32,000 nt of DNA from Candidatus Saccharimonadota bacterium (GCA_965229705.1 OZ245922.1:960001-992000), one strand, 5' to 3'. Positions 5,942-31,642 are shown, counted from the first letter of the stretch. The notes: a model not told the origin generated them from the sequence alone. Program-made: numbers and translations.

Positions 5942-6709
5942 ATGAAAATTGATCTACATCATAACAATGGCGGATACTCTATTATTGCTGCTATCATGCT
6001 AGTAGGTTTTTTATTGGTACTGTGTAGTGGAATTCTCAAGGCAGTACTTTTAGAAATGCAAGACAATAAATGACGACAAGAGTATCTCAAGGCAAGCGCT
6101 TGAGCACTCTGAGCTTTAGAACTCTCTCTTTTAGAGATAAAAGAATATGGATATGGCTTTGATGGATATCAAGAGGATATATCCACTCTTTGAGAGACAA
6201 GAAAAACCGCTTTGATGCACTATGATTTTGAAAGTAGAGTGAAAGAATATAAAGGAGAGCTTGAACCATATGAAACAACATTCATTCCTCTTTTTTGGAT
6301 AGATGAGTGAGGTATATACAGTTTGTCTTGAGATGATATATCACTGAGCGTGAATGATGAGGTTGCCTGGAATATTATAGGAAATAATACAGGTATGTCA
6401 GGAAGATGACCATTTAGTAGCTTGTCACAAACCTATGTCACATGAATTGATGGAACAAAGTCTTTTATTTCTGTAAAAGATTTTCTTGCATCAAACTCTC
6501 AGAGTTATCTCCAACTGTATAATACAAATTCTGTATCGCAGGAGGAAGTGACACTCAAGATTGATACAATATCAAATGAGTATTTTACTCTTCCGAGTGC
6601 AAGTATTTTTGCAAAGTGAACTATAGGAAATCATCATCAAAATCTCATTGCAGAGGTAGATAATACGAATTTCTTGCAAATATTACGCTATTCTATATTT
6701 TCTCAATAA
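5942..6709 (+). CDS. PilX/GspK-like minor pilin-associated protein
   Basis: ATG 5942. It has an N-terminal hydrophobic segment GGYSIIAAIMLVGFLLVLCSGIL and many in-frame TGA, ending at the TAA at 6707. It is the last gene of the pseudopilin run. Confidence 0.45.
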
Positions 6710-9426: not shown

Positions 9427-10014
9427 CTAGAAGCCCGTGATACTATTTTTTTGTATTCTAATTTTTGCGCTCGAATCAGTTGTAGTAAGAGAGGTTGTTG
9501 GGAAAGCACTGCTACTATTTGGCTTACTTGTGTCAAACCCAGTTCATCATACAGTGAGTTCCCATCTATTATCATCAGAGTTAGAAACTGTTACATCGTC
9601 TTCGGCTCTATTTGATCTATTTCCATCATTTTCAAATGCCGTAGAAAGTTCATAAGATCATTGGTCTATCCCTACAGTATCTTCTCATACCATATAAGCA
9701 TATCCACATCGTGACTGATTACATGTTTGGTCATTTTTTGGGTCACCCGCAAGTGATGGAACATAGTCTTGTACATCAGTATCTGAAGTATTACTGAGCC
9801 AGTCAGATCCCCCTTGAGGGTATTCTGCAGTATCTTGATAAAATTGTTCAATACCTCACTGAAGCGCTTTCATATCGTTGATACGGGTTGTATCTCGAGC
9901 TTTCTGTATTTGAGAGGTATATACAGAAACAGCCCCTGTTGCAAGAACTCCAATAATAGTAATCACTACCAGTAACTCTATCAGAGTAAAACCCTTATTT
10001 TTCAATGCTAACAT
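9427..10014 (-). CDS. pilA: type IV major pilin / GspG-like pseudopilin
   Basis: The minus-strand N-terminus MLALKNKGFTLIELLVVITIIGVLATGAVSVYTSQIQKARDTTRINDMKAL is a textbook class III signal plus alpha-1 helix. There are 5 in-frame TGA and a Ser/Thr-rich C-terminal tail. The stop is the TAG at 9429-9427. Confidence 0.85.
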
Positions 10015-10259
10015 AATATATTGTATTAGTAATAAATTAACATTGCTTAGTATATGAAAATCTCTCTAAAAAGCGAAATACTCAAGAAAAAAGTCCTTGC
10101 ATATATGATAAAGATTATTATGAATATTTTTTTACTTACATTTTGTATTTTTTCTATTTTTTTATATACTCCCTGCGTTATTTTATATTCCTTATATTTC
10201 TTTCCCGGAGTATTCACGGAAAGATGTCTTAAAGCGATAGAAAGGGCTAATGAACTATT

Positions 10260-11573
10260 ATGAAAGTAGAGAAAAAAATACTTCCTCACTCGAGAGTAGA
10301 ACTTATTATAGAAGAAAGCGCTGAAAATGTCGCAAAATTTCGAAAAAAAGTTATTACTCATGCCAGTAAACATGCTGATATAAAATGATTTCGAAAGGGA
10401 GTAAAAATCCCTGAAAATGTCATTGTGCGTCAACTGTGAGAAGAAACTATAGCGCAAATGACTATTGAAAAAGCTATAGAATCAACATATAGAGAAACAT
10501 TAACAAAAGAGAAGCTCATCCCAGTTTCTCAGGCAGAGATTCAAGAAGTTATTTCTCAAAGTCCACTCAAAGTACGAGTACAACTAGAAGTATTTCCAAG
10601 CGTAGAAATACAATCTGGATACAAAAAAATAAAACTCAAAAAATCAAAGCTCTCCGTGACAAAAAAAGAAATAGATGCTGCGCTAGTTGATATCCAAACT
10701 CGTTTTACCCATTTTCATGAAGTAAGCGACACAAAGGTTGCCGCAAAGATGGGAGATAAAGTTACGATTGATACGCAAGGTTTTGAAAATGGAACAGCGC
10801 TTGAATCAACACAAATGCAAGACTACCCAATTGTTCTTGGTTCAAATATTCTTGTTGCTGGATTTGAGGAAGATATTGCTGGCATGAAAGTAGGAGAAAC
10901 AAAAGATATTGATGTGACATTCCCAAAAGACTACCACGACGCTGACTTTGCTGGGAAAAAAACGAAATTTACGGTAACAGTAAAAAAACTTGAGTCCGCT
11001 CACAAGCCAGAGTTTACCCCAGAGTTTATTGAGCAACTTCGTGGGAAGAAGCTCGATCTTGAGGGGTTTAAAAAACTTATTGAATCTGAGATTTTGGAAA
11101 CAAAAGAAGCAAATGATTCTCTAGAGAGAGAAATGCAACTCATAGAAGAACTTTTGAAACATACTACGATGCAACTCGGAGAAAAATTCATAGCTCAGCA
11201 AACGGATATAGTTTTTGGAGAAATAAAAGAAAATATTTCAAAAGATGGTATGAGAATAGAAGACTATCTCGCATCTCTGAGTCTTTCAGAGGCTGAATAT
11301 AAAGAGAAACATGTAAAAGAAACAGCAATAAAGAGACTTCAAGGAGAACTCATCTTACATGAGTTATTAAAGCTCGAAAAAGTTGAGGTATCAGATGATG
11401 AGATGAAGGTTGAGGTAGAAAAAATAATGTCTCGTTTTGAGTCACAAGAGGTACTCAAAAGACTCAAAGAACTCTATGTTCCAGGAAATAAATACTATGA
11501 AGAGATGAAGAGGAGAGTAGTATTTAAAAAACTTATTGAGAGTTTCTTTGAATTTGAAGAAGCAAAAAAATAA
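10260..11573 (+). CDS. tig: trigger factor
   Basis: The N-terminus MKVEKKILPHSRVELIIEESAENVAKFRKKVITHASKHADIKGFRKGVKIPENV contains the ribosome-binding GFRxGxxP motif, whose Gly is encoded by TGA. It is in frame with track ORF 10458..11573, which carries the FKBP-like and C-terminal domains. Confidence 0.9.
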
Positions 11574-12348: not shown

Positions 12349-12807
12349 TTAGAATACTATATCTTCTCAAAAAATTTCTTTCCAAACTTTTTTTTCCCAC
12401 TGTATCATTTCTTCATATTCTTCATCGGTCTCATGATCATATCCAAGTATATGGAGAAGCGAATGAATGAGGAGTTTATAAAACTCTTTCTCTGTTCATA
12501 ATCCATACTCTTTTCCCTGAGAGATGATTCTTTCTTCGCAAAAAATTATCTCTCCTGCAAGGTCCGTTTCTCAGAGATGACAAAAACTTTCATAATAGTG
12601 AAAACTCAAAACATCTGTTACTTTATTTATTTTTCTATATTTCTTGTTCAAATTTTGTATACCTCAAGCATCAAAAAACACGAGATTTATGACTCATAGT
12701 TGTTTTTTTTCTATGAGTTTAGAAATACAGAGTCATATTTCGTCAAGGATATTTTCAGAAACAGTAAACTGAGGTTCTTTTACTATTTGAAGCGAAAACA
12801 TAAGCAT
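12349..12807 (-). CDS. ybeY: rRNA maturation endoribonuclease YbeY
   Basis: The minus strand encodes ...DVLSFHYYE...AGEIIFCEERI...LLIHSLLHILGYDHETDEEYEEMIQWEKKVW. The HxxxHxxGxxH zinc motif is diagnostic. ATG at 12807, TAA at 12351-12349. Confidence 0.85.
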
Positions 12808-13232
12808 TATAAAAAAGAAATATATAGTAAAAGAGTATAGAAAATTTGCTCCTTATGTCGAGTAGAAGTATAATCTCTTTGTTTTTCTGGTCTATCGGTG
12901 GCATGCCCAATAATTTTTTCCTTACAACAAAAAATTATATGCGGGTGTTCTACACTAATTATCTGGGTAGAGGGGTTCGTCCTTTCCGAAAGATAGAGGC
13001 TCCTGCAGAAGCTGTATTCAATAAGGAATACCAAAATCTTGAGCTGACCATAGATTGGATATATATCATAAAAAATCAGGTTTTCGGACTTGATTTTTTT
13101 TACTCTCTCATATAATTTTGTGAGTTTTCTACGCGGAGTTTCAGGAAAAGATGTTTCCTCATTTTGAGATCAGTTTTACAAGGATTTTGTACTTCTCAAA
13201 GCTTCTAAAATATTATTTACTTTGAAAGATAT

Positions 13233-13466
13233 ATGTCGATTATTACTCAAGAACAAGTATCAGCGCTCAGATCTGCAAATGTTGCAGTGCCAGACGTTAA
13301 TGAGACTTGTATAGGATGTAGTGCTTGTGTGGCAATTGCTGGGGAAGTGTTTGAACTCAACAGTGAGGGGAAGTCGGAGGTAGTATATAAAGACAGCTAT
13401 GAGTGATGTGATGTTGATGATGCTATATGCGCTTGTCCGGTTGATGCAATATCTTGGACAGAATAA
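13233..13466 (+). CDS. fdx: small ferredoxin (single Fe-S cluster type)
   Basis: The 77-aa protein carries CIGCSACVAIAGEVF ... CACPVDAISW, a CxxCxxC...CP pattern. It has one in-frame TGA. Confidence 0.75.
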
Positions 13467-13495
13467 ATTTCTATCTCGTTTCTTTTGGTTATTTA

Positions 13496-13530
13496 CTCCT
13501 GCTTTTCTCAAGAAAGCAGGAGATTTTTTT
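13496..13530 (+). terminator. rho-independent terminator after fdx
   Basis: Stem CTCCTGCTTT / AAAGCAGGAG, followed by ATTTTTTT. Confidence 0.7.
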
Positions 13531-13801
13531 AGAGTAATATACCTTCTCGATATTTTGTAAATTGACAAAAATTACAATTTTTATTCCTAAAAATTTTCTT
13601 AAAAAAACTTATTTTTGGAGAGATTTTTTCTCTATCCAATAACGCCTTTGAGTTTTCCACATTTTATTAACATAACTGCACACATTTTTGTAGCAAAACT
13701 TTTGAAAAACTATACATTCTCTCTGCGTGATGATGTGAAAATATCATCCTTTATTTTTTCCCTTATGGAGGGGATAGTAATATATTATATAGAGAGAAAA
13801 A

Positions 13802-15079
13802 ATGACAATAGAACATGTAAGAAAACGCTCAGGAGAAATGGTAAGTTTCGACGGAGAAAAAGTCACACAAGCAGTGTATAAATGCCTTGAACAAATAGGA
13901 CATACTGACGCTCTCGGAGAGTCTGTAAAGATTTCAAAAAAAGTAGAAAAAAAGATCATAAAGTTTGCCAAAGATCACAAGGACTTTATCCCTACAGTTG
14001 AAGAGATACAAGATATAGTAGAATTTCAACTTATGAAGGCAGGACTTTTTGAGGCAGCAAAAGCATATATCCTTTATCGTGAAGAGAGAAAGAAAGACAG
14101 GAGTAGGAGTATTTTTCGAAAGCGAATCAATCTCAAACCATACGAGTATCCAGAACTCGCAGAATATGTTGATGCTATTCGTCATTCATACTGGGTACAT
14201 ACAGAGTTTAATTTTACCTGAGATATACAAGACTTTAAAGTTATGGTTTCTCCGCAAGAGCGAAATGCTATAAAAAACACCATGCTTGCTATTGCTCAGA
14301 TAGAAGTATCTGTAAAGACTTTCTGGGGGGATATTTATAAAAGAATGCCAAAGCCAGAGATAGGAGCCGTTGGTCAAACTTTTGCTGAATCCGAAGTTCG
14401 TCATATGGATGCCTACTCACACCTACTAGAAATACTTGGGCTCAATGAAGATTTTGAGAAAGTAAAATCTCTTCCTGTTCTTTCAAAGAGGGTGAATTAC
14501 TTGCAAGATGTTTTAAAAAATACACACTCAGAGGACAACGAAGAGTATGCACATTCTATTCTGCTTTTTTCCCTGTTTATTGAACACGTTTCTCTTTTTT
14601 CCCAGTTTCTTATTATGATGGCGTTTAATAAGCATAAGAATATTTTTAAAGGGATATCAAATGTTGTCGAAGCAACGAGTAAAGAAGAACAAATTCATGG
14701 ATTATTTGGGATTGATCTCATCAAGCTTATCAAAGCAGAACACCCAAGCTGGTTTCACGATGATTTTTATAATGAAGTCAAAAAATCATGTCTGAGAGCC
14801 TATGAAGCTGAGTCTGATGTTCTTGACTGGATATTTGAAGAGGGAGAGTTGAGTTTTCTTCCAAAGGATATGATAGGAGAGTTTGTAAAAAATAGATTTA
14901 ATAAGTCTCTCGAGTCTATTGGTATGGAGAAGCTTTTTGAAATAAATGAAGAGCTCTTGCAAGAAACAGACTGGTTTGATGATGAGATTATTGCCACAAA
15001 GCATGGGGATTTCTTTTACAAGAGACCCATTAACTATAACAAAAAGTCTAAAAGTATTACGGGAGACGATTTATTTTAA
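13802..15079 (+). CDS. nrdB: class I ribonucleotide reductase beta subunit with an N-terminal ATP-cone fusion
   Basis: Track ORFs 13802 and 14243 are in one frame, joined by the TGA at 14219. Residues 1 to about 95 (VRKRSGEMVSFDGEKVTQAVYKCL...IQDIVEFQLMKAGLFEAAKAYILYREERKK) form an ATP-cone. The remainder is R2, with metal/radical-site motifs AQIEVS, AESEVRHMDAYSHLL (ExxHxxxY), FSLFIEHVSLF and SKEEQIHGLF. Confidence 0.9.
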
Positions 15080-15105: not shown

Positions 15106-16776
15106 ATGAGATGGCTTAATGAACACTCAAAACTTTTTCTGGAAAGAGGATATTTGGTAGAATGACAAACGGCACAAAAACGACTTCGAGATATTGCAGA
15201 AAATGCAGAAAAAATACTCAAAAAACCAGGATTTGCAGATACATTTTATGGATATATGGAAAAAGGGTATTACTCTCTTTCATCTCCTGTTTGGGCAAAC
15301 TTTGGTCTTGATAGAGGTCTTCCGATTTCTTGTTTTGGTTCATATATTTGAGATGATATGTGAAGTATCCTTCATACGCACGCAGAGGTAGGAATGATGA
15401 CGAAGTATGGAGGAGGAACAACAGGATATTTTTGAGATTTGCGTCCAAGATGAGCAGAGATAAAAGACAACGGACATTCTTCTGGAGCAGTACACTTTAT
15501 GAAACTTTTTGATTCGTTGATAGATGTGGTATCTCAGGGAGCTGTAAGACGATGAACATTTGCTACCTATCTTCCTCTTGAACATGCAGATGCAGATGAG
15601 TTTTTGGATATTCGTTCAGATGGAAACCCGATTCAGCATATCAATTTTGCCGTAACGGTCACAGATCAGTGGCTCAATGAAATGGTTGATGGAGATGAAG
15701 AAAAACGAAAACTGTGGGCAAAAGTCATTCAACGAAGGAGTGAGTGAGGTCAGCCATATATTTTCTTTACTGATAATGTCAATAATCATACGGTTGATAC
15801 ATATAAAGACCACAACAAGCGTATTCATATGAGTAATGTGTGTAGCGAGATCATGCTTCCAACCGATGAAAATGAGTCATTTGTTTGCTGTCTTTCTTCT
15901 ATGAATGTTGAGTATTTTGATGAGTGGAAAGATACAGATGCTGTGGAGATTATGACCTATTTTCTTGATGCCGTGATGCAGGAGTTTATTGAAAAACTTG
16001 AAGCACTCAGAGATAGCGATGACCTGCAGAAGCAGAGAGCCTTTGGGTTCATGGAGAGAGCATATAACTTTGCATACAATCATAGAGCTCTTGGTCTTGG
16101 GATATTTTGATGGCACTCATACTTGCAATCAAAGATGATTCCTTTTGAACATCCAGATGCGATGCAGCTCAATAAAACGATTTTTCAGTTTCTTCACGAG
16201 AAATCTTACAAAGCGTCAACGCAAATGGCAAAAGAGTATGGAGAAGCTCCACTCACACAAGGATATGGAAGAAGAAATACGACCCTGCTTGCAGTTGCTC
16301 CAACAACCTCATCAGCGTTTATCATTGGTCAAGCATCTCAATCTATCGAGCCGTGGTGGTCTAACTGTTATGTAAAAGATCTTGCAAAGATGAAAGTCAC
16401 AATTAAAAACAAATATCTTGAAGCACTTTTAGAAGAGAAGGGAAAAAATGACAGAGATACATGGAACTCGATTCGTGATAATGATGGATCTGTACGACAT
16501 CTCGATTTTCTCTCAGATCTTGAAAAAGATGTGTTTAAGACTTTTGCGGAAATCAATCAGTTTGTGATTGTAGCACAAGCAGCTGATCGTCAGCAATATA
16601 TTGATCAAGGACAGTCACTCAATCTGATGGTTCATCCAGATACACCGGTAAAAGATATCAATGCTCTTTACATAGATGCATGGAAGCAAGGAATAAAAAC
16701 GCTTTATTATCAGCATAGTAAGTCTGCAGCCCAAGAACTTTCGAGAAAGATTAGTTGCGTTGGGTGTGAAGCGTAA
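15106..16776 (+). CDS. nrdA: class I ribonucleotide reductase alpha subunit, short form without an ATP-cone
   Basis: ATG 15106; the frame runs through about 9 TGA codons into track ORFs 15829 and 16123. It has the catalytic NVCSEIMLP (NxCxE), PISCFGS (the Cys of the redox pair), the KTLYYQHS Tyr-Tyr pathway pair, and a C-terminal CVGCEA redox tail. The N-terminus starts directly in the catalytic barrel with no cone. Confidence 0.9.
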
Positions 16777-19926: not shown

Positions 19927-20322
19927 TTATTCACTTCAAAGATTTTCCTCCATTCTTTGCATAATCTCTTTTGAAAGTGAGCTTTCATCTTGCTCCATGA
20001 GGTGTAGAAGAACTTCGCTTGATAGGACAATGACCTCAAGTTCTTGAGTGGCAACTACGCTTGCGCTTCGAACCTCTTCACTGAGAAGAGCCATTTCTCC
20101 AAAGATATCTCAAGTTCTCATGATATGCCGTGATCCTTGGGGTGTTGATACTTCGACAGATCCAGAAAGAATAATATATCATTCCCCATTTGGTTCCTCT
20201 CCTTGAGAAATAATAGTTTCTCCCTCGAGAAATTTCTTGGTACTACTAGCGGCGATAATCTCCTCTATCACTTCGTCTTTGAGACCTTGGAATATTTTGA
20301 GATGAGAATAATAGGAACTCAT
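19927..20322 (-). CDS. stand-alone cyclic-nucleotide-binding-domain protein
   Basis: The sequence MSSYYSHLKIFQGLKDEVIEEIIAASSTKKFLEGETIISQGEEPNGEGYIILSGSVEV...GDIFGEMALLSEEVRSASVVA matches the cNMP-binding beta-roll and FGEMAL phosphate-binding-cassette pattern. No HTH follows. The ATG at 20322 is preferred over the upstream alternative start at 20403. Confidence 0.6.
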
Positions 20323-20578
20323 AATCTTTATATTTAAGAAATAAAAAATACTTGCTTTAGGAAATGCGGAAAAAATTCGTATTTTATCGTCAAAAACCAA
20401 CATTAACTAGTACGCTTATTTCAGCCAAGTTGATTTTTCCTTGAACTACTTGTTTTTACACATTTCTTATTTTCTATGCTTACTGTTAGTATAGGCTATA
20501 TTTTTTTTATAAGCAAATAATTGCTCTGAGTATCATAATATGATACGATACTTTCAGTAGAAGTATAAAAAGAGTATT

Positions 20579-21421
20579 ATGAGTATGCAACATTTTCTTG
20601 AAACTTTGAGTGTATTTTATATTTCTCCCTCTATGATGGGGATAGTTTTTGTGATGTTGTTTCTTTTAGGAATTTCTTTTCTTTTTACGAGATTCCCTGA
20701 GAGTAACTTTTCTCTTGTATGAGATATGTTTTACGAAAAAATATTTTCTTTTTTTGATGACCTTTTATGAAGCGACTTTTCTCTTGGTACAAAAACATTT
20801 ATTGTGAGTCTCTTTTTCATTATTCTTTTCACAAATATTCTTGGAATATTTTTGGATTTTTTGGCTCCTATCTTTGGTGTGAGTGAAGGGGGCTTTGTTT
20901 TGGAAAAATTTATTCGTATTCCGAGCGCTGATGTTCAGTTTAATATGGCATTAGCAATCGTCAGTATGGTACTGCTCATCTATTTACAGTTTTTAGCTCT
21001 TGGAAAAAAAGATTTTTTTCTGAGCTATTTTCCGATATATGGGAAAGGATATCTAGAATTGCAGAAGGGAAGTATGAACCATATTTTGTATTGGATCGTT
21101 TTTCCTTTGGTCAAAATTTTTGATATTCTTATATCATTTTTTCTGAGTTTTTTGGATATTATTGGCTTGTTTGCAAAGGTCATTTCTCTGTCGTTTCGTC
21201 TTTTTTGAAATATTGTTTCAGGCGGAGTTCTCCTAGCGATACTCATAGTTGCTCTTGGGAACTTTACGGAGTCCCTTACAAGTTTTATGGGAGGGATTCA
21301 TTTTCCTGTAATACTTCCGTTGATAGTATATGCGCAGTCACTGCTTATAGCAGTGATACAGGCTCTGGTATTTTCTCTCTTGGTTGCGATATTTATGAAG
21401 GTAAGTCAGGGGGAGAATTAG
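20579..21421 (+). CDS. atpB: ATP synthase Fo subunit a, paralog 1 (alternative Fo module)
   Basis: It contains SLSFRLFGNIVSGG (essential Arg; the Gly of RLFGN is encoded by the TGA at 21206-21208) and the C-terminal helix LLIAVIQALVFSLLVAIF. It is in frame with track ORF 20804. Confidence 0.8.
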
Positions 21422-21499
21422 GAGACAAGAGGCTACTTTTTTGCACTTATAATAAAAGTATGATAGCATAGAAATATATTATTTCTTACACAGACACTT

Positions 21500-21949
21500 A
21501 TGGATATCTCGGCAATTTCACTTTGAGCGTCACTTTCAGTATGACTTGCAGGAATCTGAGTAGCTCTTGGTCAATCAGGACTTGCAAGAACAGCTATCGA
21601 AATGATAGGGAAGTCGCCACGACTCTCAGGAACTATGCTTATTTATACTATTCTTGGATTGGCACTTGTCGAAACAGCAATTATTTATGGACTGGTAGTA
21701 GCTTTTTCGATTATCGGAGCAACAGATGTAGGGAGTAGCCATCTTATAGGCGCTGGTCTTGTTATGGGTCTTACAGCTTTTTGAGCTGGTTATGGTGAAG
21801 GGAGACTTCTCTGCGCTGCTCTTGAAGCCGTAAATAGAAACCCAGAGAACAAGGCGCAAATACTTCAGTATATGGTACTTTTTGCAGCACTTGTCGAGAC
21901 TTCTGCTATATATGGACTGATTATTGCGATGAAACTCCTTAACGCTTAA
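21500..21949 (+). CDS. atpE: ATP synthase subunit c, tandem-fused double hairpin (149 aa, 4 predicted TM helices)
   Basis: There are two c-type hairpins in one ORF. Hairpin 1 is GVALGQSGLARTAIEMIGKSPR...LGLALVETAIIYGLVVAF. Hairpin 2 is GAGYGEGRLLCAALEAVNRNPE...LFAALVETSAIYGLIIAM. Four in-frame TGA fall in Gly-rich helix positions. Confidence 0.8.
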
Positions 21950-21954
21950 ATATC

Positions 21955-22422
21955 ATGCTCCAAATAGACATATACATTCTTTTTGCGCAAATAATCAATT
22001 TTTGAATTCTCTTTTTTATATTCAAAAAATATATTGCCAATGCGATGAATGCTCGAATACAGGAGCGCAGAAGAGAGCTAGAAAAACTCAAAAAAGCCGA
22101 TGAACACTACGAACAAAAAATGTCTCTTGCACAACAACAAAAAAAAGAAATACTTGATACCGCTCGAGAAACAAGCTCAGCATTGATGAAAGAGTCAGAA
22201 GTGATTATACAACAAAAGGTAGGAACAATTATTGCAAAAGCCAAGCAAGAAGCTCTTGCTATTTTGGAGAGTGGTAAACGCGAGCTGGAAAAAGACCGTC
22301 TTTCTATGCTCTCTCAGATGAAGTCTCATATTATTGATGTCTCACTCAAACTGAATGAGAAAATGTTTGGAAAATGAAAAACCAATAAAGAGTTTTTAGA
22401 AAAAGAGTTAGAGAATTTATAG
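21955..22422 (+). CDS. atpF: ATP synthase Fo subunit b, paralog 1
   Basis: It has an N-terminal TM helix (IYILFAQIINFGILFFIFKKYI) and then a long charged helix (RIQERRRELEKLKKADEHYEQK...). It is in frame with track ORF 22045. Confidence 0.75.
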
Positions 22423-22436
22423 AAAGCTCTGAATTT

Positions 22437-22470
22437 AAACCCCGGGGTATAATACCCCGGGGTTTATTTT
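22437..22470 (+). terminator. strong GC-rich rho-independent terminator closing the first Fo module
   Basis: An 11-bp stem AAACCCCGGGG / CCCCGGGGTTT with a TATAATA loop, followed by ATTTT. This is one of the most GC-rich segments I noticed in the window. Confidence 0.85.
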
Positions 22471-22672
22471 GAGTGGAGGTTGGTGTGAACTCGAAGATTT
22501 TTTCTTCTTTACATACTCATAAATCCAATACAATAAAAAGTAAGATATATTCTCTTGCTTTTTCATGCTCAAAATCTCTCTCAAAATCTTTGTAATAATT
22601 CTCTGAAATTTATTTGCGTTTCTCACTCTTTGACTTATACTTGGGCGCGTTTTTAATGCAGAGGCACAATGG

Positions 22673-22780
22673 ATGATAATCATGATGGTTCTTTCCATAC
22701 TTCCCCTGTACTGGTTTCTCATCAGCGTTATGAGAAATTTTCGAAAAGAATCAGAATTATTATATAAAGATCCAGAGTAA
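22673..22780 (+). CDS. possible small hydrophobic AtpZ/AtpI-like leader protein (35 aa)
   Basis: The peptide is MIIMMVLSILPLYWFLISVMRNFRKESELLYKDPE. Its TAA directly abuts the atpB ATG at 22781. It is called from position and hydrophobicity only. Confidence 0.3.
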   Translation: MIIMMVLSILPLYWFLISVMRNFRKESELLYKDPE

Positions 22781-23620
22781 ATGGCTGAAGCATATCCTGA
22801 AAAAACAGATACCACTCCTATTGGAGAAACCTCTCACGCGCAGTCACATCATGAGTGACCACATATTCCTTTAATACAAGGAGAGACTGTGTATGGTCCG
22901 ATTTCTAATACGACACTTACCAGTTTTATATTTTTGGTTATTGTCTTTTTTGTTGCTATTTCAGCAAAGAAAGCCCTCCTCAATAATAAAAAATCAAAAC
23001 CCAAGCTCTTTTTTCTCACTTTTGTAAAATTTTTTGATGATCAGCTTCGAGATGCTTTTGGAAATAAGAAAATGGCAAGAGCCTATTTTCCCCTCATCGT
23101 AGGAATGTTTTTTCTCATACTTTTTGGAAATCTCTTTTGACTCCTCATAGACTGGTTTGGTCTTTCAGTTATGCCAAATATCCTTTACTACTTGAGACCT
23201 ATGCATAGTGACATGAATACTACTCTTGTACTTGCGAGTATTACCGTTGTAATACTTCTCACAATACAGATAAAAACTCATGGGACAGGAGGAATGCTCA
23301 AATCATATTTATGGAACTTTCAGGGAGACGGCATCATGTCAAAATGTATAAATGTCTTTGTTGGATGGCTTCATCTTATTGGTATTCCAGCGACTCTAGC
23401 ATCTCTTTCTCTTCGTTTATTTGGAAATATTTTTGCGGGAATCGTTTTGATTGGAGTGATAAGTTATTTGATGGCATGAGCAACATGAGCAGTTTTTGAG
23501 ATTGGAAGATTGGCAGTAATACCGTTTTGGTTTTTTGAAGTATTTGTCGCGCTGATTCAGGCGATCGTTTTTACATTTTTGATGATTGCATACTTTAAGT
23601 GAGCAAGCGAACACCACTAA
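22781..23620 (+). CDS. atpB: ATP synthase Fo subunit a (main operon)
   Basis: ATG 22781, in frame with track ORFs 22889 and 23171. It contains LSLRLFGNIFAG and the C-terminal ALIQAIVFTFLMIAYF. There are several in-frame TGA. Confidence 0.9.
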
Positions 23621-23689
23621 AAAGTAAGATACATATTTTCTCTTTATTTTTCAAGAAGAGAAAATATAATTTTATTTTTTATACTATAA

Positions 23690-23920
<231 letters not shown>

Positions 23921-24036
23921 ATATGCAGAAGCTTTGTGCTTCTTTGCTCTCGCTTTGCAGTGTGCTTCGCGGGATGAGTAAAAAGAATAGATGAGTTTTT
24001 ACATGCAAAAAGTATTTTTATTATGTGAGCATCACT

Positions 24037-24045
24037 TGGTATAAT
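24037..24045 (+). promoter_or_regulatory. candidate extended -10 promoter element inside the atpE-atpF spacer
   Basis: TGGTATAAT (the TGnTATAAT form) lies about 60 nt upstream of the atpF ATG. Confidence 0.3.
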
Positions 24046-24107
24046 ATTTTTTACTCTGTATCTCATTATCTTTAAGTATTTTTAATAAGTAATTTATAAT
24101 TGATTTT

Positions 24108-24608
24108 ATGGCAGCACAACAAGCCCAAGGACTTATAAATCTTCAATTTGTCACAGTAGAAACATTTATTATTCAGTTTATTATACTCTTAGTAGTATTA
24201 TGGGTATTGAATAAATTTGTTTTCAAACCATATCTTGCGTATCTCGATGAATGGGAGGCAAAACAAGAAAAGGTGCAAGAAGACTATAATAACGCTGAAA
24301 AAATACTTGAAGAAAAGCGTCAACAGTGAGATAAGATGCTCGAGAATGCTCGCATGAAATGAAACCTACTCATAGAAGAGTCGGAAACACTTGCAAAACA
24401 AAAAAAGGAAAAAATACTTCTTGATGCTGAGACAGAAGCTCAAAATGCTGTAAACGCTGGACAGAAACAAATAGAACAAGAACGCCGATGAATGCTTTCG
24501 GATATGAAAGAAAATGTTATGAACCTGGCACTTAAACTCAATGAGAAACTTTTTCAAGATGAAAAAGCCTCAAAAGATTTTATGAAAAAGCATATAGATA
24601 CCCTTTAA
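24108..24608 (+). CDS. atpF: ATP synthase Fo subunit b (main operon)
   Basis: It has a TM helix (FIIQFIILLVVLWVLNKFVF) and then a charged helix. Track ORF 24108 is extended through 3 TGA to the TAA at 24606. Confidence 0.85.
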
Positions 24609-24620
24609 TAACTGATATAC

Positions 24621-24968
24621 ATGCAATACATTGATACGCTTGATGCATCTTCCGCAACGGTAGTGCTTTGAGAACTCAAAAAATACGCTGAACTGAGAAA
24701 GAAGCTCGGAAAAAGAGGGAGAGATCTTTTTCATCGCAAACTTAGTGGTCAAAAACATCTTGTTGTAGAGCATGCGCAAAGCGTCTCTGAGGATATGGCG
24801 TGGCAGCACGCTGAGTGAGTATTTGAAAAAACTTTTTGACACAAGACAGAAAAACGGCAGGTAGTATTTGTTCCTCGATCATCTCTCAAAGGCTGAATGA
24901 AAGTATATCTTGATGATATGATGGTTGATGTGAGCTTTAAAAAAGTAGAAAAACACATGCAAAAATAA
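24621..24968 (+). CDS. atpH: short ATP synthase delta (OSCP)-like subunit, 115 aa
   Basis: It occupies the delta position between b and alpha. The C-terminal VVFVPRSSLKGGMKVYLDDMMVDVSFKKVEKHM matches the conserved delta C-terminal pattern (P..L.GG..v..gd...D.S). The N-terminal domain is much shorter than usual. Confidence 0.6.
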
Positions 24969-25002
24969 AAAACATAATTTTATAATCTAAACAAAATAAA
25001 AT

Positions 25003-26508
25003 ATGTCACAAGATGTATTACAGTCAATTATCTCTGAAATAGAGGCAAAGATAGATTCTACTGATTTTTCTCCTGAGATTGAAAATGTTGGAGAAGTTTT
25101 TTATCTCTGAGATGGAGTTGCAAAAGTATCAGGACTAAGAGGAGCAAAATACAATGAAGTCTTGGAGTTTGATTCTGGAGCAACAGGAGTAGCTCTCAAT
25201 CTTGAGGATCACTTTGTTGGTGTAGTGATTCTCTCGGGTTTTGCTAGTGTAAAAGAGGGAGAAAAAGTTACTTCTACCGGGAAAACACTTGAGGTACCAG
25301 TTGGAAAGGAGATGATAGGAAGAGTTGTTGATGCTCTTGGAAGACCGATCGATGGACTTTGAGAGATAGCTACAAAGGAGCATTATCCAGTAGAGAGAAC
25401 CGCAGAATGAGTAATGGCTCGTAAGTCGGTTCATGAACCTATGGAGACAGGTATCAAGGCGGTTGATGCGCTCGTACCTATTGGACGAGGACAGCGTGAA
25501 CTTATTATTGGTGATAGGCAAACAGGAAAAACACAGGTAGCAATAGATACGATTCTCAACCAAAAAGGTCAAAATATGATGTGTGTGTATGTTGCTATTG
25601 GTCAAAAAGAAGGAAAAGTATCACGAACAGTAGAAGAACTCCGAAAGAGAGGGGCTATGGACTACACTATTGTTGTTTCAGCAGGGGCTTCAGAACCAGC
25701 AGCAATGCAGTATCTTGCTCCATATACAGGGTGTGCTATGGCTGAGTACTTTATGTACAACAGTCAGCACGCACTTATTATTTATGATGATCTCTCAAAA
25801 CAGGCAACGGCGTATCGTGAAATGTCTCTCCTCCTCAGAAGACCACCAGGACGAGAGGCGTATCCGGGAGATGTATTTTTTCTTCACTCACGACTTTTGG
25901 AAAGAGCTGCCAAACTCTCAGATGAAAAAGGTGCTGGATCTATGACAGCGCTTCCGATTATTGAAACGCAAGCAGGTGATGTATCTGCTTATATCCCGAC
26001 GAATGTGATTTCTATTACTGATGGGCAGATATTTCTCGACTCAAACCTCTTTAACTCAGGACAAAAACCAGCGATATCAGTAGGTCTTTCAGTTTCACGA
26101 GTTGGATGATCAGCGCAGATGAAAGCCATGAAAAAAAATTCTGGAACACTCAAACTTGATCTTGCTCAGTATCGTGAACTTGCAGCATTTTCACAATTTG
26201 CTTCTGATCTTGATGAGGCAACGAGAGCCCAGCTAGACAGAGGAGCTCGTATGATGGAACTTCTCAAACAAGGGCTTAATGCTCCAGTACCAGTACCAAA
26301 ACAGGTATGTGCACTCTATGCGGGAGGAAAAGGATATCTTGATGGTATTTCAGTAGAAAAGGTTTTGAAATTTGAAGAAGATTTACACGCTGCTCTTGAT
26401 CAGGATAAGAAAGTACTTGAGACGCTTGCAAATGAGAAAAATCTCTCAGAAAATACAGAAAAAGATCTGGTAAAGATCATAGAAAAAGTAGTTGAGTTAC
26501 ATAAGTAA
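25003..26508 (+). CDS. atpA: ATP synthase F1 alpha subunit
   Basis: ATG 25003. It has Walker A GDRQTGKT and [25 protein letters not shown]. The TGA at 26107-26109 falls in SVSRVG-G-SAQ. It joins track ORFs 25162, 25414 and 26119. Confidence 0.95.
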
Positions 26509-26513
26509 AAAAC

Positions 26514-26645
26514 ATGTTCAATTCTGAAAAAGGAATCGTTGATTTTGACATAGATGGTAATGTTGTAGAGATAGAAATGTTTTGAGTAAAGAAGACTTTT
26601 GCGAAAAATAATATTTTTCTTGATCAAAAAGAATTAATAGCATAA
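26514..26645 (+). CDS. DUF2283-like mini-ORF (43 aa), possibly a remnant
   Basis: The peptide MFNSEKGIVDFDIDGNVVEIEMFGVKKTFAKNNIFLDQKELIA has a core vDfD.dGnvvgiEi that resembles DUF2283 small proteins. It starts 6 nt after the atpA stop. Confidence 0.3.
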
Positions 26646-26666
26646 ATGTAAACTTTTTACTTTTAT

Positions 26667-26698
26667 CTTTTAACCTTAGACTTTCCACTTTAAACTTT
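26667..26698 (+). repeat. left copy of a perfect 32-nt direct repeat bracketing the two TA cassettes
   Basis: CTTTTAACCTTAGACTTTCCACTTTAAACTTT is identical at 26667-26698 and 27727-27758; I checked this base by base. Confidence 0.9.
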
Positions 26699-26760
26699 CC
26701 ACTATTGAGAAATACAAAAAAAATATATAATAGAGGCAGTATTTTCTAAAAAAAATTATG
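26695..26760 (+). promoter_or_regulatory. conserved promoter/operator block of TA cassette 1
   Basis: CTTTCCACTATTGAGAAATAC-A8-TATATAATAGAGGCAGTATTTTCTAAAAAAAATTATG contains TTGAGA (26705-26710) and TATAAT (26726-26731). It is nearly identical to 27234-27300. Confidence 0.55.
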
Positions 26761-26955
26761 GCAACAATACAAGTTGAGTTACCTGAACAAGTACAAGATA
26801 CATTTAAAATATCAGAAGAGCCAATAACAACAGAAGACTTTCTGACTCGTCTTGAACAAGCAGAAGAAGACATGTGGATTGATATAGAGTTAGATGAACC
26901 AATATCTATGCAAGAATTTTCCAGGATGCTAAAAAAAGATATTTATGGTTCCTAA
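26758..26955 (+). CDS. putative antitoxin 1 (small acidic protein, family not recognised)
   Basis: A 65-aa acidic ORF, MATIQVELPEQVQDTF...DEPISMQEFSRMLKKDIYGS. Its 3' end overlaps the RelE/ParE toxin start by 11 nt, which is classic type II TA architecture. Confidence 0.6.
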   Translation: MATIQVELPEQVQDTFKISEEPITTEDFLTRLEQAEEDMWIDIELDEPISMQEFSRMLKKDIYGS

Positions 26956-27184
26956 ATGGCTGAAAATTATTCAAAAATCACCATATGAATCTCAACTACA
27001 AAAAGTTTCTGAGAATATCGTTTTAGGGGATTTTCGATGATTAGATATTAAGAAGATACGATGAAAGTTTTGAATATATAGGTGTAGAGTGTGAGACTAT
27101 AGAATTATTTTTGAGGAGAGAGTAAATGGTGAATACAAAATTCTCCACATAGGAGGAAGAGGAGATATTTACAAAAATATATAG
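26945..27184 (+). CDS. RelE/ParE superfamily toxin 1
   Basis: With 4 TGA read as Gly the sequence is MVPKWLKIIQKSPYESQLQKVSENIVLGDFRGLDIKKIRGKFGIYRCRVGDYRIIFEERVNGEYKILHIGGRGDIYKNI. The yRxRvGdYRiiF...RgdiY signature of RelE/ParE toxins is clear, and the Gly of RVGDYR is a TGA. Confidence 0.8.
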
Positions 27185-27233
27185 TATACTTTCCACTTTA
27201 AACTTTCTACTTTAAACATCTTTTAACTTTTCG

Positions 27234-27300
27234 CTTTCCACTATTGAGAAATACAAAAAAAGTATATAATAGAGACAGTATTTTCTAAAAAGAAATTATG
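27234..27300 (+). promoter_or_regulatory. conserved promoter/operator block of TA cassette 2
   Basis: It is the same block as 26695-26760, differing by 3 substitutions and one single-base indel. It contains TTGAGA (27244-27249) and TATAAT (27265-27270). Confidence 0.55.
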
Positions 27301-27492
27301 GTTGTAATGGAGGTAGAGGTTCCACAAAAAATAGCAGAATCGTTTTTTGAATCAAAACAAAGAATTAGCTATGCTGACTTGAGGAAAAAAGAACAAGAAA
27401 TCGAGGCGACAGAGTGGACGGACGTTATGTTTGATGAGCCTGTCCCTATAGAAGAATTTAGTGTCTACCTCAAAAAACAAATACATGGTTAA
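27298..27492 (+). CDS. putative antitoxin 2 (paralog of antitoxin 1)
   Basis: The sequence MVVMEVEVPQKIAESF...DEPVPIEEFSVYLKKQIHG shares the VxVPxxI...W.D...DEP...EFS..LKK.I.G skeleton with antitoxin 1 but is otherwise diverged. Confidence 0.6.
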   Translation: MVVMEVEVPQKIAESFFESKQRISYADLRKKEQEIEATEWTDVMFDEPVPIEEFSVYLKKQIHG

Positions 27493-27722
27493 AAAATGGC
27501 AGAAAACGATAAAAAAAGCTCCGAATAAAGAAAAAATTAATGAAGTAATTGATAAGATATTTAGTACAAGATTTTCAGGAATTAGATATCGATATACTTC
27601 ATGGAAAAGAAAAGCACTTTCGTTGTAGAATATGAGATTTTAGAATCATATTTTCCAAGAAAAATGGAAAAATAGAGATAGAGGGAGCCGGACATAGATG
27701 AGATGTTTACAAAAATATATAG
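27485..27722 (+). pseudogene. RelE/ParE toxin 2, disrupted by a +1 frameshift
   Basis: The frame from the ATG at 27485 gives MVKKWQKTIKKAPNKEKINEVIDKIFSTR and then runs into a TAG. The conserved C-terminal part DFQELDIDILHGKEKHFRCRIGDFRIIFSKKNGKIEIEGAGHRGDVYKNI is in the +1 frame from 27570 to the TAG at 27720. Relative to toxin 1 there is one extra base near 27566-27570. Confidence 0.7.
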
Positions 27723-27726
27723 TATA

Positions 27727-27758
27727 CTTTTAACCTTAGACTTTCCACTTTAAACTTT
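27727..27758 (+). repeat. right copy of the perfect 32-nt direct repeat
   Basis: It is identical to 26667-26698 and lies immediately after the toxin 2 stop. Confidence 0.9.
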
Positions 27759-27806
27759 TAACTTGTAACTTTAAGCTTTAAACTTTTAACTTATAACTTG
27801 TAACTT
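27752..27806 (+). repeat. tandem TAAC/TAAAC-rich repeat directly upstream of atpG
   Basis: AAACTTTTAACTTGTAACTT (27752-27771) and AAACTTTTAACTTATAACTT (27780-27799) have a 28-nt period. An extra GTAACTT follows, and the repeat ends 3 nt before the atpG GTG. Confidence 0.75.
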
Positions 27807-27809
27807 CCC

Positions 27810-28715
27810 GTGGCAAACGCAAAAGAAATAGGACGAAAAATTTGAAGTATTAAAAATACCTCAAAAATCACCAAAGCAATGGAACTCATCTCAACAGTGA
27901 AGATGAAGAAAGCTCAAGACCTTGCAATGCAAAAAAAAGACTTTGTGATAGAAATGCTGAAAGTATTTTCTCGTATTGAAGGTTTTTTAGAAGATTTTTC
28001 ATATTTTCAAAAATATGAGAGTCAGAAAACTCTGGGGATCATTATCACTTCAAATAAAGGTTTATGTGGAGGGTATAATGTAAATGTTTTAAAAAAAGTA
28101 CATGAGTACACAAAACAAAATCCAGATGAAGATATGGACTATATCAGTCTTGGGAAAAAAGCAGCAGCCTTTGTAACTCGAACAGGAAATACGCTTCATG
28201 CAGATTTTTCTCCAGAGTATACAGATAATATTGATACACGCTTTGTAAAATCTCTCACGCAGACTATGTATGATGCCTATCTTTCTGGAAAATATGGGAA
28301 GGTTGTAGTGTTTTATAACTACTATGTCAACTCTATTAAACAAATTCCGGTTGCCCGAGAGTTTCTTCCTATTGATGCTCAGGGAGTACGAAACTATCTT
28401 GAGAGCATTATTGATGACGAAAAGGTTCTTGAAGATATAGGAAGCGAGACTATAGATTATATTATAGAACCAAGCTCAGAGTCTATTGCTGATGATCTTA
28501 TACCAATGATTCTTGATATGATGTTTTATGATATTTTACTTCAGGCAAAAGCCTCAGAACACTCAGCAAGAATGGTTGCGATGAAAGCAGCAAAAGACAA
28601 TTCTCAAAAAATTGCGGATATGCTCACACTGCAGTTTAATAAAGCCCGCCAAGGACTCATTACTAGAGAAGTATCTGAGATAGTCGCAGGTGTTGAATCT
28701 CTCAAGGATACCTAA
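27810..28715 (+). CDS. atpG: ATP synthase F1 gamma subunit (GTG start)
   Basis: GTG at 27810 gives (M)[35 protein letters not shown], the conserved gamma N-terminus, in frame with track ORF 27879..28715. The C-terminus is ITREVSEIVAGVESL. Confidence 0.9.
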
Positions 28716-28784: not shown

Positions 28785-29237
28785 ATGAAATATATAAGCA
28801 TAGCTCTCAAGATGATGATAAATATCGCGTTATATTGTATATATGTGATTTGTATTTCTTTTGTTTTTTCTTTCTTTTTCCCTCTAGCACTCAGACTTAT
28901 GGGAAAAAATATTCCACACTACGCAGATCCAGTTTTTGTCAAAATCCAAGTATTTATTGCAGCTCTTGTACTCCTATTGTCCCTTATTTTTCGTAAATAT
29001 CTCTACACTTCCTGTAAGGATAAAAAATATCTTTCTGCAAAAAATCAGAAATCTAGTAGTAATCCAACAACTACTCAAGCTCATAATCATCAAAAAACAG
29101 TGAAAAAAACGGTAAAAACACCAGCAAAGAAAACTCCTGCAAAAGCAAAAAAACCAGTAAAGAAAAGAGCAAGTTCTCAGGCAAAAACAAAAAAAGAAGA
29201 TGATATGAAAATATATGTAGAAAAAGAAATAAAATAA
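28785..29237 (+). CDS. membrane protein with a Lys/Ala/Pro-rich basic C-terminal tail
   Basis: The ATG at 28785 is preferred over the TTG at 28722. It has two hydrophobic helices and then KTVKKTVKTPAKKTPAKAKKPVKKRASSQAKTKKEDD, a histone H1-like low-complexity tail. No family recognised. Confidence 0.5.
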   Translation: MKYISIALKMMINIALYCIYVICISFVFSFFFPLALRLMGKNIPHYADPVFVKIQVFIAALVLLLSLIFRKYLYTSCKDKKYLSAKNQKSSSNPTTTQAHNHQKTVKKTVKTPAKKTPAKAKKPVKKRASSQAKTKKEDDMKIYVEKEIK

Positions 29238-29381: not shown

Positions 29382-29780
29382 ATGTTACTACGAGTATATA
29401 CAGATTGAGGATCTAGAGGGAACCCATGAGTGGCAGGCCTAGGAGTGTATATAGTGGACAAAGAGGGAACACCTCTTGAGAGACGCTATAAGTATCTCGG
29501 AACGACGACCAATAATATCGCCGAGTATACAGGGGCATTCTATGGAATAAAAAGAGCTCTTGAGCTCTGAGCTACACAGATAGAACTCTATATGGATTCA
29601 AAACTGGTTATATCGCAACTCAAGGGAGAGTGGAAGGTAAAAGACGCTGAGCTCAAAAAAATTTATTTAGAGATTCTCCAGTTAGTATGAGACAGAGATG
29701 TGAGCTATAACTGGATCCCAAGAGAGCAAAATACTGAGGCAGATGCACTCAGTAATAAAGCTATGGACGAAAAGATCTAA
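29382..29780 (+). CDS. rnhA: ribonuclease HI family protein
   Basis: The sequence is MLLRVYTDGGSRGNPGVAGLGVYIV...TNNIAEYTGAFYGIKRALELG...ELYMDSKLVISQL...NTEADALSNKAM. The DEDD catalytic pattern (YTDGG, AEY, MDS, EADAL) is present. There are 4 in-frame TGA, two of them in the DGG/NPG Gly positions. Confidence 0.85.
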
Positions 29781-29807: not shown

Positions 29808-31199
<1,392 letters not shown>

Positions 31200-31210: not shown

Positions 31211-31642
31211 ATGAAACTTAGCGTATTGTCATTTTCAGGAGAAAACTTTTTTCATGAAAATATTCTCTCTGTGACACTCATGACAAAGTCATGAGAAATA
31301 ACCATTCTCGATAATCATGCTCCAATGATTGCATTGATTGAACCTTGTGTTCTTTATACGAAATATAAAGATGAAAATGGTATTGAGCAAAGGGATGATT
31401 TTGCAATAGGAACGGGTGTAGTCGAGATACATAATTCGAGCGTAAAAATCATGTCAGATATGCTTATTGATGTGGAAGAGGTAGATCTTGATCAGGCGCA
31501 ACTTGCAAAAGAGAGAGCTCTAGAACTTATGGAGAAATACAAGCACAGAAAAGATAGGGTTGATATGGAAAAGTTTATTGAGGCTGAGGATCAGCTCCTC
31601 AAATCTATAGCGCAGCTCAAGCTCTATGATCTGAAAAAATAG
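31211..31642 (+). CDS. atpC: ATP synthase F1 epsilon subunit
   Basis: ATG 31211. The beta-sandwich N-terminus (SGEITILDNHAPMIALIEPCVL, whose first Gly is a TGA) is followed by the helical tail DLDQAQLAKERALELM. It is in frame with track ORF 31325. Confidence 0.85.

Follow-up and report, generated by a model that had tools for sequence, protein, structure and literature searches.

A 32,000-nucleotide stretch of the genome of a Candidatus Saccharimonadota bacterium (GCA_965229705.1 OZ245922.1:960001-992000; hereafter the window, in whose coordinates positions are given unless a relative's locus is named) carries an F-type ATP synthase locus in which two non-identical sets of genes for the membrane sector, Fo, stand beside a single set of genes for the catalytic sector, F1. 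The usual picture of a rotary ATP synthase pairs one F1 with one Fo, and where a second ion specificity is needed, organisms are known that have a complete second enzyme, e.g. an N-ATPase or a V/A-type ATPase. The comparison of this locus with its relatives suggests that here, rather probably, one F1 and one truncated delta subunit serve two alternative Fo sectors of different predicted ion specificity. The locus would provide a single catalytic head with its central stalk (alpha, beta, gamma, epsilon), one delta and two complete membrane sectors: a type-1 Fo (20579-22422) that appears specific to the clade, and a type-2 Fo (22565-24608, including a small gene that we call I2) that appears to be the canonical bacterial form. 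The strongest available evidence is that closely related sets of F1 and delta work with either Fo, so that one F1 should be able to serve both. The sequence-only reading of the window had suggested that one F1 could assemble with either of two Fo sectors, perhaps differing in coupling ion, and this proposal is supported by the architectures found in relatives, by the selection acting on both modules and by the residues of the c-subunit ion sites.

The two Fo gene sets and the single F1 of the window

Translated with table 11, the region is a mosaic of short open reading frames (ORFs); when UGA is read as sense, the total length of all ORFs with 100 aa or more rises from 5,143 to 17,889 residues. 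UGA codons coincide with universally conserved glycines of alpha (SRVG-G-SAQ) and beta (SAV-G-YQPT), which identifies the code as 25 (UGA = Gly) and not 4; the a1 gene has 3 such codons and the cc1 gene has 4. Many database homologs of the fused c subunit described below carry Trp at conserved Gly positions of the GxGxGxG helix, the mark left when this recoding is translated with table 4. With table 11 or table 4, annotation pipelines overlook these genes or translate them wrongly.

Under code 25 the three genes of the type-1 module, for which the sequence-only reading had proposed the functions a, fused cc and b, are intact, match the corresponding Pfam families and keep their catalytic residues; like all ATP synthase genes of the window they lie on the plus strand. 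The a1 gene (20579-21421) encodes an F-type subunit a of 280 aa (PF00119, E = 1.4e-22) in which the essential Arg (LSFRLFGN) and the last-helix Gln (VIQALVF) are present; both are conserved across its family. The cc1 gene (21500-21949) encodes a fused double-hairpin c subunit of 149 aa with two PF00137 domains, a carboxylate in each hairpin (E58 and E133), and the hairpin loops K-S-P and R-N-P; its best solved relative is c1 of Acetobacterium woodii (4BEM_J, E = 4.9e-13). The fused cc family comprises 66 clusters of 145-150 aa that are 38-97% identical, and every cluster with a source name is labelled Candidatus Gracilibacteria; E58, E133, P40, N114, P115 and Y138 are invariant in the 52 family members that were aligned. 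The third gene, b1 (21955-22422), encodes an F-type stator subunit b of 155 aa (PF00430, E = 1.4e-10).

The type-2 Fo genes follow on the same strand. Subunit a2 (22781-23620, 279 aa; PF00119, E = 2.7e-37) is a canonical subunit a and belongs to a large, Gracilibacteria-wide family with 420 matches. The single-hairpin c2 (23693-23920; PF00137) is 73-75 aa long, with the ATG at 23699 as its likely start; its loop is R-N-P, the same as the second loop of cc1, and its best solved relatives include the H+ c-rings of cyanobacteria and chloroplasts. Stator subunit b2 (24108-24608) has 166 aa (PF00430, E = 2.1e-15). The two modules are only distantly similar, with identities of 28% for a1/a2, 28% for b1/b2, and 34% and 44% for the two halves of cc1 against c2; pairs only 28-44% identical are old and do not derive from a recent tandem duplication.

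All F1 genes are present once: alpha at 25003-26508 (501 aa), gamma at 27810-28715 (301 aa), beta at 29808-31199 (463 aa) and epsilon at 31211-31642 (143 aa). No second F1 gene occurs anywhere in the 32-kb window, which bears out the earlier statement that a second alpha, beta, gamma, delta or epsilon is missing from it. Delta, also single-copy, is truncated (24621-24968, 115 aa). Its match to PF00213 is weak (profile positions 100-163, E = 0.027), while profile alignment with HHalign against canonical deltas from outgroup operons gives a probability of 69% (E = 4.4e-5); the match runs through an L-x-GG-x-[KR]-V..D..D-x-S motif, and a search of the delta profile against solved structures returned nothing significant. 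Residues 1-47 match no region of delta, and the usual N-terminal, alpha-binding helical domain of about 100 residues is not recognisable. By these matches delta is predicted to keep the C-terminal, b-binding OSCP domain, with the N-terminal domain replaced by about 47 unrelated residues.

Distribution, selection and boundary of the modules

The flanks of cc-type loci were classified by tblastn under code 25, and to these we added three loci anchored on distant a2 homologs, two close relatives and 80 metagenome loci anchored on alpha (loci of relatives are numbered L001 and so on). In a scan of species-representative genomes the fused cc was found in code-25 lineages only, namely Gracilibacteria, Absconditabacteria/SR1, Vampirococcus lugosii and the oral taxa HOT-871 and HOT-345; beyond these, the scan matched V-type proteolipids of archaea or clostridia and c subunits with a single hairpin. 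A survey of related genomes for the a-cc-b triad had been proposed from the sequence alone, and across the classified cc-type loci and the added loci it resolves three architectures. In class B (about 18 lineages: L009, L012, L016, L019, L021-L024, L027, L028, L036, L101, L103, L104, L106, L108, L112 and L114) the type-1 a, cc and b genes are the sole Fo and stand directly before delta-alpha-gamma-beta-epsilon. In class A (at least 5: L084-L086, L096 and L118) only I2-a2-c2-b2 precedes delta. Class C (about 8: the window together with L087 as one, L001, L006, L007, L008, L011, L088 and L094) has both Fo sets, with type 1 ahead of type 2 in every case.

Delta follows directly after b1 in class B and after b2 in classes A and C. 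In relatives of all classes F1 is orthologous, with alpha 72-91% identical, and the truncated delta is the same one, which is found throughout the clade and in all three classes; the lineages in the dual state span alpha identities of 78-100%, and no second F1 gene was found in the 10-kb flanks of the dual loci. In some genomes type 1 stands alone (L003-L005, L026 and L018). One of these is the oral SR1 (L026), in which the triad is isolated because the ATP synthase genes are dispersed, beta lying alone 8 kb from it. Type 1 is the sole Fo type found in the deepest code-25 branches sampled (SR1/Absconditabacteria and Vampirococcus), and this, together with its role as only Fo in the class B lineages, shows that a1-cc1-b1 is no accessory and calls for a change in its earlier description as a second Fo.

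In the alpha tree the SR1 groups, Vampirococcus and L022 have type 1 only, and the three classes are interspersed in the crown Gracilibacteria: sister pairs are formed by L108 (type 1) with L085/L086 (type 2) and by L036 (type 1) with L011 (both), and L084 and L096 (type 2) adjoin the clade of the window (both). The tree of a2 agrees broadly with that of alpha; for a1, copies from dual genomes lie near the SR1 copies in a tree whose root is unreliable. This distribution would fit an old dual state followed by reciprocal losses, and cassette exchange between lineages is also possible. A simple insertion of a2-c2-b2 into a type-1 operon was considered and dropped, given the relatives with type 2 only and the congruent a2 tree. 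The distance between a1 and a2 equals that of either to outgroups, and outgroup a subunits score slightly better against a2 than against a1 (e.g. 80 vs 73 bits). Since outgroup a and c genes are slightly nearer to a2 and c2 than to a1 and cc1, type 2 is taken as the canonical form and type 1 as the clade-specific one.

The F-type c subunits of relatives also occur as single polypeptides with 4, 6, 7, 8, 10, 12 or 13 hairpins. Pfam ATP-synt_C domains number 13 in a protein of 968 aa and 10 in one of 750 aa (Vampirococcus lugosii), and 7 are found in a protein of 521 aa from the complete genome of Gracilibacteria HOT-871; Glu65 is kept in every tabulated hairpin of these proteins. The genes lie at L009:6091-8997 and 9977-11332, L016:9971-11314 and 12429-13778, L019:6329-9022, L027:2394-4646, L023:1231-3030, L024:9980-11545, L022:1021-2379, L012:951-1841 and L021:9749-10639, and in some genomes two multi-hairpin c genes flank a1 (13+6 or 6+6). 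To our knowledge a multi-hairpin single-chain c is otherwise known only as the A-type K subunit of Methanopyrus kandleri, and for F-type enzymes of bacteria we found none reported. Fusion of type-1 c into chains of 4-13 hairpins might fix the rotor stoichiometry genetically.

Both modules are under purifying selection, as evidenced by low ratios of nonsynonymous to synonymous substitution (dN/dS). Between the window and its close relative L087 (about 98% amino acid identity) dN/dS is 0.03 for cc1, 0.06 for b1 and 0.05 for b2; c2 has no amino acid change at a synonymous divergence (dS) of 0.07, and a1 and a2 have too few substitutions for a meaningful ratio. Against L088 and L006, where dS is 0.8-2.2 and thus near saturation, the values are 0.19 (a1), 0.10 (cc1) and 0.10 (b1) for type 1 and 0.12 (a2), 0.07 (c2) and 0.13 (b2) for type 2, with 0.05 for alpha as a comparison. 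No frameshift, stop codon or loss of the essential Arg or Glu occurs in any dual locus. The dN/dS range of 0.03-0.19 and the kept residues indicate that neither module is decaying; the decay of the paralogs through frameshifts or loss of these residues, which the sequence-only reading had named as a possible outcome, is accordingly rejected. The synonymous divergence from L087 is a mosaic along the operon (a1 0.005, cc1 0.18, b1 0.19, I2 0.02, a2 0.01, c2 0.07, b2 0.20, delta 0.35, alpha 0.02, gamma 0.23), which suggests recombination between strains within the operon (20579-28715).

If both modules dock on the same F1, their b subunits should be most alike where they meet it. We aligned 24 b1-type and 9 b2-type proteins and scored each column with BLOSUM62: similarity between the two families rises from 0.2-0.9 in the membrane anchor to 1.5-2.0 at the C-terminus, and in the window the last 41 residues of b1 and b2 are about 46% identical, compared with 28% overall. 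This is the pattern expected if each anchor suits its own a and both stalk ends dock a common delta/F1.

The boundary between the modules is marked by predicted RNA hairpins. A GC-rich hairpin with a T-run (22436-22470, plus strand; a 14-bp stem at 22436-22466 with 8 G-C pairs, followed by TTTT) follows b1, a terminator-like element in line with the strong terminator earlier proposed to close the type-1 module. It is unique in the window, and the spacer 22423-22570 has a folding z of -7.15; the hairpin lies within a segment of about 88 nt that is seen only in the window and is an insertion relative to L001, L006, L007 and L008. A weaker hairpin with a U-run (22535-22564, plus strand) ends directly at the ATG of I2, and it is this element that is conserved in position: equivalent hairpins of 9-13 bp with 4-7 U occur at the same place in L001, L006, L007 and L008, with differing sequences and with UUUU in the first and UUUUUU in the other three, so that a hairpin and U-run mark the b1/I2 boundary in 5 of the 5 dual genomes tested. 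By these elements the module boundary would be a transcriptional punctuation mark. The only Rfam matches to known RNAs or riboswitches in the spacer were below threshold and all came from the hairpin itself, and a scan for sigma-70 promoters gave matches no more frequent than in shuffled sequence.

As had been claimed, an operon complete with a, c and b genes of its own does lie downstream of the type-1 module; the gap of about 300 bp between the two is not empty. The interval from b1 to a2 is 358 bp, and it is partly occupied by I2 (22565-22780, plus strand), leaving a true spacer of 142 bp. I2 was found from an alignment of the spacers of five genomes with a conserved ATG; its code-25 ORF is 69-75 aa long in these genomes and in the window encodes a membrane protein of 71 aa with two hydrophobic segments, two UGA codons and a TAA stop that abuts the a2 ATG. 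It precedes a2 in all of the class A and class C loci examined and a1 in none, in a position usually held by AtpI/AtpZ, and it is 100% identical in L087 (dS 0.02). In some dual loci further genes lie at or near the junctions: L088 has an opposite-strand gene for a protein of 294 aa between b1 and a2 (L088:10925-11809), in L087 a1 and cc are separated by two inserted genes of 110 and 504 aa (L087:6780-8632), and L007 has a third, partial a1..cc-b1 set upstream (L007:383-3872).

Predicted ion specificity and alternative explanations

In Ilyobacter tartaricus numbering the Na+ ligands of subunit c are Gln/Glu32, Glu65 and Ser/Thr66, Tyr70 stabilises Glu65 without ligating the ion, and predicted Na+ enzymes also have at position 67 a residue that is polar (Ser/Thr/Gln/Arg) (PMC2359735); a pair of carboxylates, E32/E65, is Na+-coupled in Fusobacterium nucleatum (PMC3692424). 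At positions 32, 65-66-67 and 70 the first hairpin of cc1 has Q, E-T-A and Y (Q25, E58-T59-A60, Y63), the second has E, E-T-S and Y (E100, E133-T134-S135, Y138), and c2 has V, E-A-I and Y. Both hairpins of cc1 thus carry the set Gln/Glu32, Glu65, Thr66 and Tyr70. The same distinction holds across loci: most type-1 hairpins read [Q/E]32-E65-[S/T]66-Y70, a minority having Val at 66 or R/M at 32, and all type-2 c subunits (9 of 9) read [I/V]32-E65-A66-[V/I]67-Y70. With moderate confidence, these residues predict Na+ (or promiscuous Na+/H+) coupling for type 1 and H+ coupling for type 2.

The arrangement that we favor, one F1 with two alternative Fo sectors, would work as follows. Each b would fit its own a through a module-specific anchor and dock the same delta/F1 through a similar C-terminal end, both rings would present an R-N-P loop to the same gamma/epsilon, and the cell would assemble F1Fo-1 and F1Fo-2 from one pool of F1, the likely outcome being one Na+-coupled and one H+-coupled enzyme. 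Direction of operation and regulation we infer from the setting: in a non-respiring, fermentative epibiont both enzymes would probably be mainly ATP-driven pumps, making a sodium-motive and a proton-motive force, and the terminator-like hairpin at the boundary could set the ratio of the two modules at the transcript level.

Several observations weigh against parts of this arrangement. The full set of Na+ ligands including a polar residue at 67 is present only in the second hairpin of cc1 (S135); position 67 is Ala in the first hairpin (A60) and in most hairpins of relatives. Sites with two carboxylates may also be H+-selective or promiscuous, as in Methanosarcina acetivorans (PMC3692424), and Moreira et al. 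found the c motif of Vampirococcus to be unlike that of typical Na+ enzymes. The likeness of the C-terminal ends of b1 and b2 could have arisen by gene conversion instead of through a common partner. At the boundary the U-run ends at the I2 ATG in L001, L006, L007 and L008 as well, which leaves no room for a promoter, so that the main operon is perhaps expressed by read-through; it may depend on read-through or on a promoter within b1, and independent regulation of the modules is uncertain. Our trees are neighbor-joining trees of single proteins, which do not fix the order of gain and loss. The sharing of F1 we infer from gene content, and the single F1 is established for the 32-kb window.

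One of the other explanations is a single hybrid complex with a mixed cc1 and c2 ring (compare c1 with c2/c3 in A. woodii), a heterodimeric b1-b2 stator (compare b/b' in cyanobacteria), and either one a in use or two alternating. The closest solved relative of cc1 is indeed A. woodii c1, a part of a hybrid rotor; the C-terminal halves of b1 and b2 are alike; and the modules are adjacent, on the same strand and maybe co-transcribed by read-through. A hybrid is nonetheless unlikely, in that relatives run the same F1 and delta on type 1 only or on type 2 only, a complex takes one a, yet both a genes are under purifying selection, and the differing chemistry of the c sites means that sites of Na+ type and of H+ type would take turns around a mixed ring; in A. 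woodii, moreover, one operon holds all c genes together with one a gene and one b gene. We regard as quite unlikely a transitional redundancy, in which one Fo is replacing the other after transfer or duplication, so that a single module is in use and its counterpart is being lost. Such a transition would account for the many relatives that have lost one module and for the unstable junctions (the insertions of L087, the opposite-strand gene of L088 and the third partial set of L007), but it is at odds with purifying selection on two intact modules even at a dS of 0.8-2.2 (dN/dS 0.07-0.19), with the retention of the dual state in about 8 lineages whose alpha identities are 78-100%, and with the freedom of the dual loci from frameshifts, stops and Arg/Glu losses.

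It is also conceivable that a1-cc1-b1 belongs to a separate ATPase whose matching F1 set lies elsewhere in the genome, since 32 kb of the genome were seen and unlinked F1 genes do occur in the clade, as in the oral SR1 (L026). We consider this very unlikely: in about 18 lineages type 1 stands before the same delta-alpha-gamma-beta-epsilon that type 2 precedes elsewhere, the genomes are about 1 Mb and published analyses give them a single F-type ATP synthase, and the 10-kb flanks of dual loci hold no further F1 gene. A type-1 Fo that operates without any F1, serving as an ion channel under regulation or as a rotor of its own, would agree with the terminator that ends the module and with its occurrence alone in L003-L005, L026 and L018; this is highly improbable, given that b1 has a full-length stalk with a conserved delta/F1-binding end, cc1 keeps the R-N-P loop that contacts gamma/epsilon, type 1 is the sole Fo of the operon in most relatives, and the stand-alone cases have F1 genes elsewhere. 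Two alternative Fo sectors on one F1 thus remain the reading that we prefer. An extension of it is offered tentatively, as an idea that may well prove wrong: in Gracilibacteria Fo would be a swappable cassette on a vertically inherited F1, and the organism of the window would use a dual currency, with a Na+ cc rotor and an H+ single-hairpin rotor, the split between them being set at the terminator/attenuator and perhaps by the cNMP-binding protein described below, and with sodium- and proton-motive force made or interconverted from fermentative ATP.

Neighbouring genes and comparison with known systems

A gene divergent from a1 (19927-20403, minus strand) encodes a protein of 158 aa that consists of a domain for binding cyclic nucleoside monophosphates (cNMP; PF00027, E = 2.6e-19) and has no DNA-binding domain. 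In loci of all three classes a homolog stands 28-410 bp upstream of the leading Fo gene, whichever type that is, and in L018 one accompanies the stand-alone a1-cc-b1 triad; the protein may be a regulator or partner of the ATP synthase, and is a candidate for this role by position. No conserved operator was found in the intergenic regions between the cNMP gene and a1, which are AT-rich and do not align. Within the operon, between gamma and beta, x3 (28785-29237, in an ORF open from 28722; plus strand) encodes a protein with two hydrophobic segments and a Lys-rich tail; 27 distinct homologs were aligned, encoded at this same place in loci of all three classes, and x3 may be a clade-specific ATP synthase subunit, accessory or assembly factor. 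Neither the I2 nor the x3 family matched any model in Pfam or NCBIfam, including AtpR, AtpQ and AtpI. An RNase HI gene that is not part of the enzyme (29382-29780, plus strand; PF13456 and PF00075) also lies between gamma and beta, as it does in many Gracilibacteria relatives. The long gap between alpha and gamma holds two paralogous acidic ORFs of 64-65 aa with no UGA (26758-26955 and 27298-27492); there is one copy in L006, L007 and L087 and none in L001 and L008.

The neighbors of the locus are chromosomal housekeeping genes (PilC, pseudopilins, FtsQ-like, trigger factor, YbeY and ribonucleotide reductase), and the guanine-plus-cytosine content is flat across the type-1 module (0.33-0.38); a mobile element or island was rejected on both grounds. 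The ribonucleotide reductase genes have an uncommon arrangement, in which the small subunit (13802-15079; PF03477 and PF00268) carries an N-terminal ATP-cone and the adjoining large subunit (15106-16776) has no ATP cone and only a marginal match to the N-terminal domain. Further upstream is a type IV pilus/type II secretion cluster (3050-6709, and 9427-10014 on the minus strand) with PilC/T2SSF and several prepilin-like proteins that have N-terminal methylation motifs, which fits the epibiotic lifestyle described for the clade.

Published genomes of the clade are reported to have one F-type ATP synthase and no respiratory chain (PMC8080830, PMC6851277), and in the full-text literature we found no description of duplicated Fo modules or of multi-hairpin F-type c subunits in these lineages. 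Should the proposed sharing of F1 hold, the F1-Fo interface, i.e. the b C-terminus on delta and the c-ring loops on gamma/epsilon, would be modular in vivo. The relatives amount to a natural genetic experiment, in which the same F1 and delta occur with Fo-1, Fo-2 or both, and which can inform on coupling ion, ring size and stator fit. The locus also bears on the role of ATP synthase in Candidate Phyla Radiation bacteria that lack a respiratory chain (PMC8080830, PMC6851277), for which two Fo sectors of differing predicted ion specificity point to the ATP-driven generation of two ion gradients.

Among known systems, the Na+ F1Fo of A. woodii (PDB 4BEM) is likewise an F-type enzyme with a fused four-helix c; cc1 aligns to its c1 over the full length, and the two have the Q/E...E-T...Y type of ion site in common. 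The second hairpin of c1, however, has Q (AVAQTTGIY) where the cc1 family has Glu in both hairpins, and A. woodii has one a, one b and all c genes in one operon, which form one mixed ring (c1 with c2/c3). Judged by its defining feature, the locus is not a hybrid rotor of this kind: both carboxylates are kept, and a and b are duplicated as well. The multiplication of c by gene fusion is shared with the multi-hairpin proteolipids of A/V-type enzymes (the 13-hairpin K of Methanopyrus kandleri, the triple hairpin of M. jannaschii and NtpK of E. hirae), but those are A/V-type and often lose ion sites, whereas here the operon is F-type and Glu65 stands in every tabulated hairpin. An identification of cc1 as a V-type K proteolipid was also rejected, since the best models reach 33-51 bits against cut-offs of 101-211 and the neighboring genes are F-type.

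Split atp operons, as in Alphaproteobacteria, Deltaproteobacteria/Myxococcota, Aquificae and cyanobacteria, where atpIBE(F) lies apart from atp(F)HAGDC, resemble the locus in that Fo genes form their own transcription unit, and Myxococcota loci include a-c pairs with no F1 nearby; they differ in having one unlinked Fo set, in contrast to the two non-identical complete Fo sets and one F1 found here. Cyanobacteria, chloroplasts and Alphaproteobacteria have two diverged b paralogs per genome, b and b', but these are partners in one complex that has one a and one type of c, whereas here each b has its own a and c and each occurs alone in relatives.

There is a functional parallel with the N-ATPases, which have the gene order atpDCQRBEFAG with their own alpha, beta, gamma and epsilon, carry AtpR and AtpQ, and have a long b and no delta (Dibrova et al. 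2010, PMC2881411). The locus itself is not an N-ATPase, as had been noted from the sequence: the models TIGR03306, TIGR03322 and TIGR03321 score 23, 60.5 and 32.7 bits against cut-offs of 302, 131 and 225 (23 bits being that of a1 with altF1_A, and 32.7 that of b1 with alt_F1F0_F0_B), neither AtpR nor AtpQ occurs, and no ORF lies between or ahead of a1, cc1 and b1; there is a delta gene, and the length of b1 is normal, unlike the long b of N-ATPases. The likeness lies in a second membrane system with a Na+-type c, often with Glu32, that coexists with an H+-type F-ATPase, and in the logic proposed for it, Na+ extrusion beside H+ coupling; the difference is that an N-ATPase is a complete second enzyme, while this locus has no second F1 and its delta is common to both modules. 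By this analogy, the two Fo sectors would functionally resemble an H+ F-ATPase paired with a Na+ N-ATPase, but with no second F1.

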